Assembly (NCBI GenBank): GCA_041482015.1
Contig: JBGPCZ010000004.1
Location: 13,027 to 77,026, forward strand
Reading direction: 5' to 3'
Origin: Planctomycetota bacterium
GTDB taxonomy: Bacteria; Planctomycetota; MHYJ01; JACPRB01
DNA: 64,000 nt
Below, piece by piece: positions 15,065 to 52,647 of the stretch. A program made the translations under genes and the position numbers. The notes beneath the pieces are model-generated. The model did not search any database and was not told the origin of the DNA. It saw nothing but the letters and a program-made list of their open reading frames with translations. Position 1 is the first letter of the stretch, and the number at the start of each line of letters is the position of its first letter.

Positions 15065-16126
15065 ATGAAGCCATTTAGAGTCGTCGTCGCGGGGCTGGTC
15101 CATGACCACGCGTGGGGGCTCCTTCCCCAGTTCGCCAAGGTCCCCGGGGTCGAGATCGTGGGCGGCGCGGATCCGAACCCGCCCCTGCTCGAGAAGCTCA
15201 AGAAGGAGTTGGGCGTCACCGCCCTCTTTGAGCGGCCCCGCGACCTCTTCGCGCGCGTGAAAGCCGACGCCGTCCTCGTCTGCGCTTCGAACTCGGGAAG
15301 CGTCCCGATCGCCGAAGCCGCCGCCGCGCGCGGGCTTCACGTGCTGGTGGAGAAGCCGATGGCCGCGACCGCGGAGGGCGCACGGCGAATGCTCCGAGCC
15401 TCAAAGAAGCACGGCACGCGCCTCATGGTCAACTGGCCGATCGCGTGGAACCCCGCGATCGTCCGCGCGATGGAGCTCGTCGAGAGCGGCGACATCGGCC
15501 AGGTCTTCCACGCGCGAATCCACATGGCGCACCAGGGGCCGAAGGAGGCCGGCTGCTCCCCCTACTTCTGGAAGTGGCTCTACGATCCGAAACAGAACGG
15601 GGCGGGCGCGATCGTCGACTACGCCTGCTACGGCGCGGCCGTCATGGCCGCCCTCTGGGGACGGCCCCGCGAGGTCGTCGGCGTCGCGCGCACGCTCGTC
15701 AAGCCGCGCTTCCCGGTCGACGACAACGCGATGATCGTCGCCCTTTGGCCGGAACGAACGGTGCTGTCGCAGGCGTCGTGGACCCAGAACCCCGACTTCC
15801 ACGAGGCGCTCTTCCTCGGCGTGAAGGGCACGCTCGAGACCGCCCGCGGAAAGCTGATCCGCACCCACACGCGCGCCGAGGACTTCTCCCATTGGGGCGC
15901 GAACCGGATGAATCCAGAGGACGTCCCGCTCCCCGCGCTCCCCGCCGGGCGGCGGAATGGACCCGAGCATTTCGTCCACTCGATCCGCTCGGGCCGCCCG
16001 TTCACGAAGCTCTGCCGCGCCGAGACCGGGCTCCTCGCGCAAGAGATCCTCTCCGCCGGGATCCGGTCGGAGCGCTCGGGGCGGCGGATCACTCTCGGGA
16101 GCGGCCGGAGTCCCGGCACTTCTTGA
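15065..16126 (+). CDS. Gfo/Idh/MocA family oxidoreductase
   Basis: N-terminal Rossmann VVVAGLVHDHAW and the EKPMA motif (HVLVEKPMAAT). 3' end overlaps the convergent sulfatase by 38 nt. Confidence 0.8.
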   Translation: MKPFRVVVAGLVHDHAWGLLPQFAKVPGVEIVGGADPNPPLLEKLKKELGVTALFERPRDLFARVKADAVLVCASNSGSVPIAEAAAARGLHVLVEKPMAATAEGARRMLRASKKHGTRLMVNWPIAWNPAIVRAMELVESGDIGQVFHARIHMAHQGPKEAGCSPYFWKWLYDPKQNGAGAIVDYACYGAAVMAALWGRPREVVGVARTLVKPRFPVDDNAMIVALWPERTVLSQASWTQNPDFHEALFLGVKGTLETARGKLIRTHTRAEDFSHWGANRMNPEDVPLPALPAGRRNGPEHFVHSIRSGRPFTKLCRAETGLLAQEILSAGIRSERSGRRITLGSGRSPGTS

Positions 16127-17516
16127 GAAGCGCCGCGAGGCGCTGGACGACGTCGGGCTTCTCGGCGTAGAGATTCTTCGTCTCGCCCGGGTCGTCCACA
16201 AGATTGTAGAGCTGGCCCGCGGGATCGCCCGGCGCGACCTTCACGTTCGTGAACCCGCCGCTCCCCTGCCCCTCGACCAGCTTCCACGGACCCTCGCGGA
16301 TGGCGAACATCCCCGCCGAGGAATGGTGGATCGTGTACGGCCGCGCAAACATCCTTTCTCCTTTGAAGAGAGGTCCGAGATCGAAGCTGTCCTCGCCCGA
16401 GTCGGCCGGCATCTTCGCTCCCGCCGCCGACGCGCACGTCGCGAAGAGATCGGCGAGGCACGCCGTCGCGTCGCACGTCGAGCCCGGCGCCACGCGGCCC
16501 GGCCAGCGGACGGCGAACGGGACGCGGTGACCGCCCTCGTGGATATCCGCCTTCTGGCCGCGCCACGGTCCGTTCGACCGGTGGCCCCACTTCTCGATGT
16601 CGGAGACCGGCCAGTGCGAGCCGTTGTCGCTCGTCAGGACGACCAGCGTCTCCTTCGCAAGCCCCGCGCGCTCCAGGGCCCCGAGCACGCGGCCGACCAG
16701 GACGTCGACCTGCACGACGAAGTCCCCGTACGCGCCCGCCTTTGATTTCCCGCCGTGCTCGTCGACCGGCAGCCACGGCGTATGCGGCCCCGTCAGCGCG
16801 AGGTAGAGAAAGAACGGAGCCGCGCGATCCTTTCCCTGGCGCTCGAGGTACGCGACGGCTTCGCGCTCGATCCGCGGGAGGACGTCGAGGTGCTTGAAGC
16901 CCGGGGCGATCGGCCCCGCGCGCCAGAAGCCGCTCCCGCCTTCGCGCTGGTGCTTCCCCGCCTCGACGCGATCCGTCGGCTGGACCTCGACCGCGCGGTC
17001 CTTCACCCAGACGTAGGGCTCCATGTCGAGCGAGGCCGGGATGCCGGAGAATTCGTCGAAGCCCGCGGAGATCGGCCCGGGGTCGAGCGGCTTTGCGTAG
17101 TCCGTCTTCGCCGCGCTCCCCAGTCCCAGGTGCCACTTCCCGATCCCGGCCGTGCGGTAGCCGCGCTGCTTGAGGACCGACGGGATCGTCGGCCGGCCGT
17201 CCTCGAAGAGGTACGGGCTGTAGCCCTGGAGGACGCCCTTCTTTAGCTTCCCGCGCCACGCGTAGCGGCCCGCGAGGAGCGCGTAGCGCGTGGGCGTGCA
17301 GACCGACGAGGGCGTGTGGACGTCGGCGAACCGCATGCCCTCCGCCGCGAAGGCGTCCATCGCGGGCGTGGGGATCTTCGAGTCGCGGTTGTAGGCGCCG
17401 GGATCGCCGATGCCCAGATCGTCGGCCAGGATGACGAGGATGTTGGGAAGGTCGCGGCGCGGCCCCGGCGCGCCCCCCAGGAGCACCGCCGCGACGATCG
17501 CCAGGGTTGCCCTCAT
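16089..17516 (-). CDS. Arylsulfatase (formylglycine-dependent sulfatase family), secreted
   Basis: NILVILADDLG and the C-x-P-x-R sulfatase signature SSVCTPTRYALLAGR. Signal peptide MRATLAIVAAVLLGG. Start at 17516 preceded by GGGAGGA. Confidence 0.85.
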   Translation of the reverse strand: MRATLAIVAAVLLGGAPGPRRDLPNILVILADDLGIGDPGAYNRDSKIPTPAMDAFAAEGMRFADVHTPSSVCTPTRYALLAGRYAWRGKLKKGVLQGYSPYLFEDGRPTIPSVLKQRGYRTAGIGKWHLGLGSAAKTDYAKPLDPGPISAGFDEFSGIPASLDMEPYVWVKDRAVEVQPTDRVEAGKHQREGGSGFWRAGPIAPGFKHLDVLPRIEREAVAYLERQGKDRAAPFFLYLALTGPHTPWLPVDEHGGKSKAGAYGDFVVQVDVLVGRVLGALERAGLAKETLVVLTSDNGSHWPVSDIEKWGHRSNGPWRGQKADIHEGGHRVPFAVRWPGRVAPGSTCDATACLADLFATCASAAGAKMPADSGEDSFDLGPLFKGERMFARPYTIHHSSAGMFAIREGPWKLVEGQGSGGFTNVKVAPGDPAGQLYNLVDDPGETKNLYAEKPDVVQRLAALLKKCRDSGRSRE

Positions 17517-39302: not shown

Positions 39303-39388
39303 TCCAGTTCTTATAACACCGGCAGGCCCGCGCCCATTCGAATAAATCGTTTCCATCCCGCGTTCAGAAGCGTAGAGTACCCCTCGCC

Positions 39389-40435
39389 ATGACCTCCTGC
39401 GACATCTGGAGCCAGGCCAAGAGCGGCGGCTGAGCCGCCAAGCTGAGCCCGCAGGTCCTGCGGGAGCTCGTCCAATCGATCTCGCCGAAGGGTCACCCCG
39501 ACCTCCTGGTCGGCCTGAACCCGTCGGACGACGCGGCGGTCTACCGCGTGACCGACGAGATCGCGATGGTCCAGACGGTCGACTTCATCACCCCCATCTA
39601 CCACGACCCTTACCTGTACGGACAGATCGCGGCGGCGAACTCGCTCTCGGACGTCTGGGCGATGGGCGGCCGGCCCGTCACCGCGATGAACATCTGCTGC
39701 TTCCCCGCCAAGGGAGTGGACACGGAGACGCTCGCGAAGATCCTCCAGGGCGGCCTTTCCAAGATCGAGGAAGGGGGCGCGGTGCTCGTCGGCGGCCACT
39801 CCGTCCGCGACGACGAGCTCAAGTACGGCTGCTCGGTCACCGGCTTCATCCACCCGAAGAAGATCGCCCTGAAGGGCGGCGCGAAGGCGGGCGACCGGCT
39901 GATCCTCACCAAGCCCCTCGGGAGCGGCGTCCACGTCACGGGAGCCAAGCGCGGCCTCCTCCCCGACGAGAAACTGCGTCGCGTCATGGAGACGCTCGCC
40001 CAGCTCAACAAGACGGCCGGCGAGACGATGATGGAATTCGAGGTCCGCGGGGCGACCGACATCACGGGCTTCGGCCTGGGCGGCCACGGCCTCGAGATGG
40101 CCCGCATCGCCCGGCTCGGTTTCCGAATCCACGCGGACTCGCTGCCCCTCTTCCCCGACACGATCCCGCTCCTCGAACAGGGCCTGACGACGGGCGCCAC
40201 CCCGGGCAACCTCGCGCTCATCCGGGACGGGATGAAGTACGACGCGGCCGTCACGGTGGCCGAGCAGGGCCTTTTCAGTGATCCGCAGACGTCGGGCGGG
40301 CTCCTGATCGCGATCCGCGCGAAGGATGCGGAGGCCCTTCTCAAGACGCTCCACGAGCGCGGGGTGAAGGACGCGAGGATCATCGGCGAGGCATTCGCCG
40401 CCGACACGCCCCACCTCCACGTGGTGAAAGGATAG
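39389..40435 (+). CDS. selD: Selenide, water dikinase (selenophosphate synthetase), selenocysteine-containing (UGA 39431..39433)
   Basis: One TGA interrupts an otherwise open frame. The read-through N-terminus SGG-U-AAKLSPQVL...DDAAVY matches the SelD glycine-rich loop. The rest is typical SelD (DFITPI..DPY..G.IAAANSLSDVWAMGG, PQTSGGLL). Confidence 0.8.
39445..39469 (+). other. Candidate bacterial SECIS hairpin for selD
   Basis: GAGCCCGCAG-GUC-CUGCGG(GA)GCUC starts 11 nt after the UGA. Its apex GCAGGUCCUGC resembles the E. coli fdhF SECIS apex GCAGGUCUGC. Confidence 0.55.
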
Positions 40436-40440
40436 GACCC

Positions 40441-40923
40441 ATGACGCAAGAATCCTTCTACGCGCTTAAGACGAAGAGCCTGGACGGCAGGGCTTCCGAC
40501 CTCAAGGACTATGCCGGCAAGGTCACGCTCGTCGTCAACGTCGCGAGCGAGTGTGGGTTCACGCCGCAGTACAAGGGCCTCGAGAAGCTCCACGGCGAGC
40601 TCAAGGACCGGGGCTTCGCGGTCCTGGGGTTCCCGAGCAACGACTTCGGCGGGCAGGAACCCGGCACGGCCGAGGAGATCCAGTCCTTCTGCTCCACGAA
40701 GTACCAGGTCACTTTCCCGATGTTCGAGAAGGGGGTGACCAAGGCAGGCGGCGGCCAGTCCGCGGTCTTCGCGAATCTCCAGGCGCAGTCGAAGGAGCTC
40801 CCCGACTGGAACTTCTGCAAGTACCTGGTCGGGAAGGACGGCCAGGTGGTGAAGTTCTTCAGGAGCAAGGTCAAGCCCGACGACCCGGGCCTGCGCAAGG
40901 AAATCGAGGCCGCCCTCGGGTAG
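40441..40923 (+). CDS. Glutathione peroxidase family protein (Cys type)
   Basis: NVASECGFT, LGFPSNDFGGQEPG and WNFCKYLV motifs. Starts 5 nt after the selD stop. Confidence 0.9.
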   Translation: MTQESFYALKTKSLDGRASDLKDYAGKVTLVVNVASECGFTPQYKGLEKLHGELKDRGFAVLGFPSNDFGGQEPGTAEEIQSFCSTKYQVTFPMFEKGVTKAGGGQSAVFANLQAQSKELPDWNFCKYLVGKDGQVVKFFRSKVKPDDPGLRKEIEAALG

Positions 40924-40965: not shown

Positions 40966-41517
40966 ATGAGGACCGCTCTCGCGCTCTGCCTGCTGGCCGC
41001 GACGCAGGCCGTCGACCTCAAGGTGGGCGACGCCGCGCCGAAGTTCGAGTCGACCGACGACGCCGGCAAGGCGTGGAAGTCCGACGAGCACGTCGGGAAG
41101 AAGATCCTGGTCGTCTACTTCTTCCCAGCCGCCTTCACCGGCGGCTGAACCAAGCAGGCCTGCGGGTACCGCGACGACATGAAGTCGTTCGCGGACAAGG
41201 ACGTCGACGTGATCGGCGTCTCGGGCGACACGGTCAAGACGCAGGAGGCGTTCAAGAAATTCCACAAGCTGACCTTCACGCTCCTCGCCGACGAGAAGGG
41301 CGAGGTCGGCAAGGCGTTCGGTGTGCCGGTCAGCAAGGGCGGCACGGCGAAGGCGAAGGTCGACGACAATGACGAGGAGTTCATCCGCGGCGTGACGCTC
41401 AAGCGGTGGACATTCGTCCTGGGCAAGGACGGCAAGGTCGCCTACAAGAACACCGAGATCAAGACGCCGGCCGAGGACAGCAAGGCCGTGCTCGAGGTCA
41501 TCGCGAAGCTCAAATGA
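40966..41517 (+). CDS. bcp: Bcp/PrxQ-type peroxiredoxin with signal peptide, selenocysteine at the peroxidatic position (UGA 41146..41148)
   Basis: Listed ORFs 40966..41148 and 41179..41517 are in the same frame, separated only by a TGA. The joined sequence VVYFFPAAFTGG-U-TKQACGYRDDM aligns with E. coli Bcp VYFYPKAMTPGCTVQACGLRDNM. Confidence 0.8.
41161..41193 (+). other. Candidate SECIS region for the Sec-peroxiredoxin
   Basis: Two overlapping hairpins. UGCGG-GUA-CCGCG has its loop starting 18 nt after the UGA. CGCGACGAC-AUGAA-GUCGU(U)CGCG is a 9-bp stem. The functional one is unresolved. Confidence 0.35.
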
Positions 41518-46138: not shown

Positions 46139-49100
46139 ATGGGCGTCAGCCGCCGGGATTTCCTTAAGCTCTCCGCGGCGGGCGCGTTCGTCACGCCCTT
46201 CGGGTTCGATCTCACCCCCGCCCTCGCCGAGGCGAAGAAGTTCAAGATCGCCCGCACCACCGAGACCCGCTCGATCTGCCCCTACTGCTCCGTCTCGTGC
46301 GGCGTCATCGTCCACACGCGGGGCGAGGGAAAGAACACCCAGCGGCAGATCGTCCACATCGAGGGCGACCCGGATCACCCCGTCAACCTGGGCACGCTCT
46401 GCCCCAAGGGCGCCACGCTCAAGCACTACGTCGACAACGACCGGCGCCTCGACCGCGTGCGCCACCGCGCCCCCGGCGCGAGCGACTGGACCTTCATCTC
46501 GTGGGACAAGGCGATCGACATGATCGCCCAGCGGATCAAGAAGACCCGCGACGCGGACTTCATCGCGAAAGACAGGGACGGCCGCACCGTCAACCGCCTC
46601 GACTCGATCGCCGCCATCGGCGGCTGCACCGACACGAACGAGTTCAACTGGCTCTTCCAGAAAGTCGCGCGGGCCTGGAGCATCGCCCACCTGGAGCAGC
46701 AGTCGCGGATATGACACGGTCCCACGGTGGCCAGTCTGGCCCCCACCTTCGGACGCGGCTCGATGACGAACGGATGGACCGACATCCGGAACACCGATGT
46801 CGTCCTCTGCATGGGCGGCAACCCCGCCGAGAATCACCCGTGCGGGTTCAAATGGGCGATCGAGGCCAAGAAGAAGCGGGGCGCGAAGATCGTCTGCATC
46901 GACCCGCGCTACAACCGCACGGCCGCCGTCTCGGACTGCTTCGTCCAGATCCGCTCGGGGAGCGACATCGCGTTCCTGGGCGGACTCATCCGCCAGGCGA
47001 TCGAGGACAAGCTCTTTCACGAGGAGTACGTCAAGCTCCACACGAACGCTCTCTTCCTCCTGGAGCCCGGGTCGGAGCTCGGGACCGACGGGCTCTTCGG
47101 TGGATTCGATTCCGAGGCGAAGAAGTACGACAAGTCGAAATGGAAATACCAGCTCGATGAAAAGGGGCTCGCGAAGCGGACGGCCTCGCTCGACGATCCC
47201 GCCTGCGTCTTCCAGCACCTGAAGCGCCACTACTCCCGCTACACGCCGGAGGTCGTCGCCGATATCGCCGGCTGCACGAAGGAGGATTTCCTCAAGGCCG
47301 CGGCGATCATCAACTCGACCGGCACGGCCAGCCGAGCGGGGACGATCATGTACGCGCTCGGCTGGACGCAGCACTCCACGAGCGTCCAGATCATCCGCGC
47401 CGCGGCGATCCTCCAGCTCCTCCTCGGCAACATCGGCCGCGCGGGCGGCGGCGTGAACGCGCTCCGCGGCCACGCGAACATCCAGGGGGGCACCGACCAC
47501 GGGGTCGCGTACCACGCGCTCCCGGGCTACATGGCGATCCCGCGGGCCACCGACCTGGACGTCGCGACGTACCTCAAGCGGATCACGCCGGAGTCGCTCT
47601 CGGCCACGTCGATGAATTACTGGGCCAACGCGCCGAAGTTCTTCGTCTCGCTCATGAAGTCGATGTACGGCGGCGCCGCCACCGAGAAGAACGAGTGGGG
47701 CTTCCACTGGCTCCCCAAGATCGATCCCGCCGTGAACTACTCGTGGGTCTACATCTTCGACAAGATGTACAAGGGCGAGATCAAGGGGTTCATCGACTTC
47801 GGCATGAACCCCGTCGCGAACGGCCCCAACACCGAGAAGATCATCGCCGCGCTTTCGAAGCTCGACTGGATGGTGATCGCGGAGGCGTTCGAGACGGAGA
47901 CCGCCTCCTTCTGGACCGTCGCCAAGGAGTCCCCGAAGACGGAAGTCTTCATGCTCCCGGCCGCGATCTTCGCCGAGAAGGACGGCTCGTTCACCAACTC
48001 GTCGCGCTGGGCGCAGTGGAAGCACAAGGCGACGGAGCCCCCCGGCGAGGCGAGGACCGACCAGGAGATCCTCGCGCGGATCTTCGTCCGGGTCCGCGAG
48101 CTCTACGAGAAGGAGAGCGGGGCGTTCCCCGACGCGATCCGCGCGCTCGACTGGTCGTACAAGAACCCCTACGCCCCGTCGCTCGAGGAGATCGCGAAGG
48201 AGATCAACGGCCGGGATCTCGCGACCGGGAAGCAGCTCAACGCGTTCAGCGAACTCAAGGCCGACGGCACGACCGCGAGCGGCAACTGGCTCTACTGCGG
48301 GAGCTTCACCGAGGCCGGCAACATGATGGCCCGGCGCGACCCGCGCGACCCGTCGGGCCTCGGACGGCACGAGAACTGGGCATGGAACTGGCCGATGAAC
48401 CGTCGCGTCCTCTACAACCGGGCGGGCGCGGACGCCCAGGGAAAACCCTGGGACCCGACGCGATCGGGCATCACGTGGGACGGGTCGAAGTGGATCGGCG
48501 ACGTGCCCGACCTCAAGGCGGACAGCAAGCCCGAGGACGGGCTCGGCGCGTTCATCATGCTTCCCGAGGGCGTGGCCAAGCTATGGGCCCCGGACTTTGC
48601 CGACGGCCCCTTCCCCGAGCACTACGAGCCGATGGAGCACCCGACCGAGGAGAACCCACTCCACAAGCAGACGACGAGCCCCGTCGCGCCCGTCTTCAAG
48701 AGCGACATGGACCGGCTCGGAACCCCCAAGGAGGGCTACGACATCGTCGCGACGACCTTCCGGCTCACCGAGCACTTCCACTACTGGACGAAGCACGTGG
48801 CGCCGGCCGCGATGCTGCAGTCGGAGTTCTTCGTGGAGATCCCCGAGGGCCTGGCCCTGGAGAGAGGGATCCAGAACGAGAACCGCGTGCGCCTCTCGAC
48901 GCCGCGGGGGTCCATCGAAGGGCGCGCGCTCGTGACGAAGCGCATCCACGGAATGAAGGTCGCCGGGAAGACCGTGTGGCAGGTCGCGATCCCGATCCAC
49001 TGGGGCTTCCAGGGGCGGACCGAGAAGGGGAACGCCGCGGTCAAGGGCGGCCGCGGCCCCATGGCAAACCTGCTGACGGCGAGCGTCGTCGACCCGAACT

Positions 49101-49156
49101 CGTTCACGCCCGAGTACAAGACCTTCCTCGTGAAACTGGAGAAGGTCTCGTCATGA
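46139..49156 (+). CDS. fdnG: Formate dehydrogenase-N/O type alpha subunit, TAT-exported, selenocysteine-containing (UGA 46712..46714)
   Basis: RRDFLK signal and CPYCSVSCG Fe-S motif. ...QSRI-U-HGPTVASLAPTFGRG matches E. coli FdnG ...ARV-U-HGPTVASLAPTFGRG. Listed ORFs 45998..46714 and 46727..49156 share the frame. Confidence 0.9.
46726..46747 (+). other. Candidate SECIS hairpin for fdnG
   Basis: GGUGGCCA-GUC-UGGCC(CCC)ACC starts 11 nt after the UGA. UGACACGG... and the GUC-containing apex parallel the E. coli fdhF element. Confidence 0.6.
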
Positions 49157-52131: not shown

Positions 52132-52647
52132 ATGAAGCTTCTCCACTCCCTCTTCCTCTCTCTCTTTCTGGCCCTTCCCGGCCTGCCCGCCGCCGCCCAG
52201 GAATCGAAAACCGCGCGGGAGCAGCTCAAGGAATCCCTCGCAAAGGCGAAGGAGGGAAAGAAGCGCGTCCTCCTCACCTTCGGCGGGGCCGGCTGAAGCT
52301 GGTGCAAGATCTTCGAGGCCTGGAAGGCCCGGGAGGAGGTCGCCCCGATCCTCGCAAAGGACATCGTCAACCTCTACATCGACACGTCCAAGGTCGCCGG
52401 CGGGAAGGACCTTCACGCGTCCTATCCGAAGAGCCAGAAGGGCGGCATCCCCTGGTTCGTCATCCTCGACGGCGAGGGCAAGGAGCTCGGGGATTCGAAC
52501 GGCCCGAACGGAAACATCGGATGCCCCGACACCGACGAGGAGATCGCGGCGTTCATCGACCTTTTGAAGAAGGTCCGCCTCTCAATGACCGACGACGACC
52601 TTGCTGCGCTCAAAAAGTCGCTGGTGGCCCGCCGGGAGAAGAAATGA
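52132..52647 (+). CDS. Secreted thioredoxin-fold selenoprotein with U-x-x-C redox motif (UGA 52294..52296); absent from the ORF track
   Basis: ATG 52132 to TGA 52645 is open except for one TGA. Signal peptide MKLLHSLFLSLFLALPGLPAAAQ. RVLLTFGGAG-U-SWCK occupies the position of the Trx C-x-x-C (WC..CK). GIPWFVILDGEGKEL is typical of the Thioredoxin_7-like fold. GC3-rich codon usage continues across the TGA. Confidence 0.7.

Follow-up and report, generated by a model that had tools for sequence, protein, structure and literature searches.

The selD locus

The window, by which we mean the whole 64-kb stretch of DNA analysed here, carries on its forward strand a reading frame that runs from an ATG at 39389 to a TAG at 40433-40435 and is interrupted only once, by a TGA at 39431-39433 that forms codon 15. 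Upstream of 39389, as far as the preceding stop codon, the frame offers no alternative ATG, GTG or TTG. Read through the TGA, it encodes a protein of 348 residues, MTSCDIWSQAKSGG-U-AAKLSPQVLRELVQSISPKGHPDLLVGLNPSDDAAVYRV..., identical to the peptide quoted in a preliminary description of this DNA, which had likewise traced the open frame back to ATG 39389. The mechanically produced ORF list holds only a 295-aa version starting at 39548. This start does correspond to codon 54, as previously described, but the residue named there, Met54, exists only as an initiator reading because the codon at 39548-39550 is GTG and encodes Val in full-length SelD. The features of the locus are as follows.

39389..40435, + strand: selD CDS (selenide, water dikinase, that is, selenophosphate synthetase), identified through TIGR00476, AIRS/AIRS_C and structure alignments
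39431..39433, + strand: UGA codon 15, predicted to be read as Sec, equivalent of the catalytic Cys17 of E. coli SelD by alignment to 3U0O and 2YYE and by the homologue column
39441..39469, + strand: putative bacterial SECIS with upper stem, GUC triloop and bulged lower stem, recognised from folds and bSECIS criteria and broken in Cys-type relatives
39548..39550, + strand: GTG codon 54, spurious start of the 295-aa entry in the ORF list, whose product is without U15, K18 and D48

Since the predicted catalytic Sec is specified by an in-frame UGA, stop-to-stop ORF calling drops the first 53 codons, which are essential. The product of the codon-54 start is devoid of the Sec/Cys-Lys loop and of the first Asp, and the short ORF is therefore an artefact of ORF calling.

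Identity of the product and conservation of the UGA codon

The read-through protein matches TIGR00476, the NCBIfam equivalog model for SelD, with 349.8 bits (cutoff 125) over profile positions 5-310 of 311, and both the AIRS (PF00586) and AIRS_C (PF02769) domains are found in it. Matches to solved structures include SelD of Aquifex aeolicus (2YYE, 1e-62) and of E. coli (3U0O, 2e-55, 191 bits). In the alignment to the Cys-type E. coli enzyme U15 falls opposite Cys17, exactly where the preliminary description had put it, and the N-terminal loop SGG-U15-AA-K18 corresponds to GAG-C17-GC-K20 with Sec or Cys followed three residues on by the essential Lys; Asp51, Asp68, Asn87 and Asp91 of the E. coli protein are likewise conserved, as D48, D65, N84 and D88. 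The full-length match to TIGR00476 also bears out the earlier expectation that read-through would restore the Gly-rich loop and the DDAAV motif, for the truncated ORF has neither U15 nor K18 nor the DDAAV Asp. Judged from these alignments, the gene at 39389-40435 is a full-length member of the Sec-containing SelD family.

A search for selD in 40 related genomes, conducted with stop codons read through, yielded in most of them a selD with exactly one in-frame TGA. Alignment to Sec-type and Cys-type SelD sequences, which the preliminary description had named as a way to judge the UGA, keeps this codon in place: in a gap-free DNA alignment of 28 class-level relatives it occupies one column, with TGA in 25 and TGC in the other three. 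We extended the comparison to 87 homologues with an intact N-terminus, taken from the related genomes, from loci in species-representative genomes and from metagenomes, and originating in Planctomycetota, Desulfobacterota-type lineages, Armatimonadota and others. About 80 of the 87 carry TGA at the codon 15 position within the motif G-U-A-x-K, and seven carry TGC within G-C-A-A-K. Sec-type SelD is thus the rule across the Planctomycetota-related class sampled. The 14 codons that precede the UGA are kept in relatives as well, in the form C-D-I-[WR]-x-x-A-[KR]-S-G-G.

One Sec-type homologue is peculiar. Locus L021 (G017:C225:19703-20737, minus strand) has an extra in-frame TAG 16 codons past the Sec codon, in the context RQI*P, at a position that reads GAG in genome G014; either a pseudogene or a mistake in this 64%-complete MAG could account for it.

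A hairpin downstream of the UGA codon

Folding places an upper stem of CCCGCAG (39448-54) and CUGCGGG (39458-64) around a GUC loop (39455-57), the G and U of which are nucleotides 25 and 26 counted from the U of the UGA. The stem can be extended downwards in two near-equivalent ways, either by pairing GAG (39445-47) with CUC (39467-69), which leaves a 2-nt 3' bulge and gives a 10-bp stem beginning 11 nt past the UGA, or by pairing AGCU (39441-44) with AGCU (39465-68), which leaves a 3-nt 5' bulge. The bulged 10-bp hairpin 11 nt downstream that had been described before is thus one of these folds, but the GGUCC apex ascribed to it requires the closing G-C pair to be open, and 9 bp then remain.

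We compared the hairpin with the bSECIS consensus model of Zhang and Gladyshev 2005, taken as summarised in PMC13188914. In that summary the loop is 3-9 nt long and starts with G[G/U], the upper stem has at least 4 bp (Fig. 2 of PMC13188914), the element lies 16-37 nt from the UGA and the energy is -7.5 kcal/mol or lower. The selD hairpin, with a 7-bp stem, a GUC loop, a spacing of 21 nt and -11.2 kcal/mol, falls within every one of these summarised limits. A sensitive Rfam scan of 39380-39540 returned no SECIS family and only noise matches on the opposite strand. The SECIS search proposed in the preliminary description therefore succeeds with the bSECIS features as summarised in that paper but not with the Rfam SECIS covariance models.

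The hairpin shares with the E. coli fdhF/fdnG-type SECIS and with the bSECIS model a small apical loop beginning G-U, a bulged stem and a position about 20 nt past the UGA. Its apex presumably resembles the GGUC loop of E. coli fdhF.

The frequency with which such a structure occurs by chance was estimated by requiring at least 7 contiguous pairs, a loop starting G[GU], a location 16-37 nt downstream and an energy no weaker than that of the selD hairpin. Hairpins this good follow 260 of 20,000 random genomic TGAs (1.3%) and occur in 13 of 326 in-gene windows. The energy by itself is not exceptional (MFE z-scores of -1.2 and +0.37 against shuffles), and an equally stable hairpin is present in 32% of 55-nt windows of the same selD gene, which is 68% GC. 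Neither the MFE/shuffle z-scores nor a scan for best-hairpin energy separated the element from the GC-rich gene background, and the feature-based test was used instead.

In the two closest Cys-type relatives described below, the columns that form the hairpin retain only 4/7 and 3/7 of the pairs, the loss being due in part to a synonymous CGG-to-CGC change. Downstream hairpins are also more stable at Sec-type than at Cys-type loci overall (-13.8 vs -9.2 kcal/mol, Mann-Whitney p = 0.011 in a comparison that ignores kinship). We regard the hairpin at 39441-39469, which meets the bSECIS criteria, as a putative bacterial SECIS.

Other UGA-containing genes and the selenocysteine machinery

At least three more genes with a predicted UGA-Sec codon lie in the window.

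46139-49156, TGA at 46712, SECIS at 46709-46767: fdhA (formate dehydrogenase alpha), with SRI-U-HGPTV and Rfam SECIS_3 at 67.2 bits (gathering 63)
40966-41517, TGA at 41146, same orientation as selD: exported PrxQ/Bcp peroxiredoxin, with Sec at the peroxidatic position in FFPAAFTGG-U-TKQ
52132-52647, TGA at 52294: signal-peptide thioredoxin-like protein, with GAGUSWC (UxxC) and Pfam Thioredoxin_7/DUF255

The peroxiredoxin gene is two genes past selD, preceded by a Cys-type glutathione peroxidase gene (40441-40923), and the thioredoxin-like gene has a GGCCU-GGA-AGGCC hairpin from about 20 nt past its UGA. The fdhA SECIS, about 7 kb downstream of selD, has a GUC triloop in common with the selD hairpin (apex GGCCA-GUC-UGGCC), its G and U being nucleotides 23 and 24 from the UGA as against 25 and 26 in selD; unlike the fdhA element, the selD element is scored by no Rfam SECIS covariance model. 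FdnH-, FdnI- and FdhE-like ORFs follow fdhA, which the ORF track breaks at its UGA. The Sec-type selD anchors a selenium-dependent redox cluster made up of the Cys-type gpx, the UGA-containing prx and, farther on, the UGA-containing fdhA and thioredoxin-like genes. We rejected a genome-wide reassignment of TGA, since no other codon terminates long open frames as often and the prx and thioredoxin-like genes nearby themselves finish with it.

The genome is a draft (MAG) of 243 contigs, 87.5% complete with an estimated contamination of 7.2%. Contig C4, from which the window comes, is similar in composition to the remainder (GC 0.678 vs 0.675, tetranucleotide r = 0.994) and therefore fits the genome. 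The preliminary description had made its reading depend upon Sec machinery elsewhere in the genome, and this was found in part. The assembly contains selA (566.6 bits) and one tRNA-Sec gene, selC (Rfam 69.3 bits; called SeC by aragorn, anticodon TCA). In profile searches of the assembly for selB, TIGR00475 detected generic GTPases only and the SelB winged-helix model PF09107 detected nothing; tblastn with SelB from the same genus matched GTPase domains only and nothing corresponding to the C-terminal half. By comparison, 17 of the 21 relatives searched have a selB that passes the cutoff. Candidates for selB at contig ends proved to be BipA/TypA and two halves of EF-Tu, which is split over the ends of C197 (8508-9236) and C224 (5657-6163). 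Placement by synteny gave no support either: in G006 selB lies beside a CysK-like gene whose counterpart here is at the end of C97, but a different, exported-protein ORF follows it there. In a draft fragmented enough to split EF-Tu, failure to find selB is a poor argument that the gene is absent.

The other UGA-Sec genes depend on a working SelD, and no second selD was detected in the assembly. Nor was selenouridine synthase (selU, TIGR03167) detectable in the assembly, and the Sec pathway is consequently the visible use of selenophosphate.

The distribution of selD paralogues among relatives is uneven. Three genomes of the same genus (G002, G003 and G006; loci L023-L025) have only a "type B" Sec-selD that is 53-55% identical to that of the window, while the window genome has only "type A", the nearest relatives of which are in another genus; this pattern suggests that paralogues were sorted, that a gene was transferred, or that the draft lacks a copy. 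Several related genomes pair a Cys-type selD with a Sec-type one, as at G010:C10:1512-2546 (L020) and G010:C165:30087-31121 (L084), at G035:C29:82615-83604 and 85250-86251, and at G037:C8:13094-14077 and 15643-16611, the two copies in G035 and G037 being less than 3 kb apart. Such a pair might let a cell escape the dependence of a Sec-type SelD on itself.

Relatives with cysteine and the origin of the UGA

The closest relatives of the window selD are both Cys-type: L020, one of the two copies in G010 (66% identity), and L085, a metagenome locus (68%). Both have TGC at codon 15, one base from the TGA of the window. A maximum-likelihood tree of 61 sequences gives (window-Sec,(L020-Cys,L085-Cys)) with support 100/98, so that the window gene branches beside the Cys pair rather than within it, and the sister clade of six sequences as well as all outer clades are Sec-type. 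With the window gene sister to the Cys pair amid Sec-type clades, one Sec-to-Cys change suffices, and the simplest reading is that Sec is ancestral. A single such change agrees with a published survey of SelD in which Sec-to-Cys conversions were found and Cys-to-Sec events were not (PMC1794560).

We think it unlikely that the ancestor of these three sequences was already Cys-type and that the window gene later regained Sec along with a fresh SECIS. The window hairpin does differ from that of the Sec-type sister clade, which has a GUU loop at +17, in that it uses different codons and lies 4 nt farther downstream, and just 2-3 substitutions separate it from the Cys relatives (Q22 CAG vs Leu CTC/CTG, R25 CGG vs CGC). 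A search of species-representative genomes, the whole taxonomic family and metagenome contigs for further Sec-type members of this sub-lineage found none and provided a single extra close relative, the Cys-type L085. If re-evolution of Sec were true it would be a Cys-to-Sec reversal, a kind of change reported by PMC1794560 as not seen in any SelD, but the place of the window gene in the tree means that a reversal, like an error, needs two changes.

It is in our view very unlikely that the gene is really a Cys-type (TGC) selD in which the TGA arose through a mistake in sequencing or assembly or through a nonsense mutation of very recent date. The single-base difference from the TGC of both nearest homologues invites this explanation, as does the origin of the sequence from a MAG with some 7% estimated contamination. 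Yet the position of the gene as sister to the Cys pair, with Sec-type clades around, speaks against it, and a hairpin of SECIS grade, expected after only about 1.3% of TGAs by chance, is present here and broken in precisely those two relatives. Moreover, besides selA and tRNA-Sec the genome keeps three or more additional UGA-Sec genes, all intact and dependent on a working SelD, and the assembly has no second selD to serve them.

Less likely again is that the Sec system is decaying after loss of selB, in which case selD and the other UGA genes would be fresh pseudogenes that end at the UGA. That selB went undetected by three methods, and that G001 and G005 of the same genus are without both selB and selD, would agree with decay. 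Against it, the frames of four UGA genes within one window remain open and each UGA is followed by a hairpin, neither selA nor tRNA-Sec is damaged, and the assembly that fails to show selB misses about 12% of the genome and is so broken up that EF-Tu is divided between C197 and C224.

Finally, true initiation at GTG 39548 with a functional 295-residue protein, for which nothing speaks beyond the existence of the mechanical ORF, is almost certainly wrong, given the lost Sec/Cys-Lys loop and first metal-binding Asp, the conservation of the 14 codons upstream of the UGA, and a search for relatives beginning at the codon-54 equivalent, an arrangement named in the preliminary description as contrary to its reading, that found none among those with a complete N-terminus, the one apparent case (G007, L026) being a locus cut off by a contig end.

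Discussion

The locus very probably holds a complete SelD gene in which the codon-15 UGA is decoded as Sec by means of the downstream hairpin and whose product makes selenophosphate, a reading based on sequence comparison and folding. By analogy with other bacteria, SelB carrying Sec-tRNA(Sec) would bind the hairpin at 39441-39469, which is capped by GUC and lies 21 nt past the UGA, and deliver Sec once that codon enters the A site. Sec15, in the Gly-rich N-terminal loop (SGG-U-AAK), would then be the catalytic, selenium-binding residue beside the essential Lys. The enzyme is expected to supply selenophosphate to SelA, and the resulting Sec would go to SelD itself, FdhA, the PrxQ/Bcp peroxiredoxin and the thioredoxin-like protein. 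The only SelD of the genome, as far as the assembly shows, would thus itself be a selenoprotein, with the familiar self-dependency that SelD is needed for SelD.

Known Sec-type SelD proteins, for example those of Haemophilus influenzae and Aquifex aeolicus, belong to the same HMM family (TIGR00476); like the protein described here they carry Sec at the catalytic position of a G-x-G-U-x-x-K loop, show the AIRS-type signature of a two-domain fold and have a SECIS inside the CDS just past the UGA. E. coli SelD differs in having Cys17 where the window has UGA/Sec, and E. coli selD needs no SECIS. The window SelD, from an uncultured lineage related to Planctomycetota, shares 40-50% identity with characterised enzymes and shows no difference of kind. 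According to PMC1794560 no bacterial selenoproteins are more widespread than FdhA and SelD, and PMC13188914 ranks SelD second in size among prokaryotic selenoprotein families and places its Sec in the selenium-binding loop at the N-terminus. Because SelD is among the top two bacterial selenoproteins in frequency, the call of a Sec-type selD is not new; it is correct, yet it is already-known biology and its value is for annotation. A 295-residue fragment without the catalytic loop could lead to the organism being scored as having no functional SelD, and annotation of the short ORF could hide its selenium use altogether. The locus is mildly unusual only in the Sec/Cys switch within a small sub-lineage and in a SECIS that differs in sequence and register from that of the sister clade.

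A second structure surrounds the UGA itself. At 39425-39439 the codons for Gly-Gly-Sec-Ala-Ala form a perfect 6-bp palindrome, GGCGGC-UGA-GCCGCC, that would hold the UGA inside a triloop in free mRNA. Since relatives do not keep it, the palindrome is probably a coincidence of codons.
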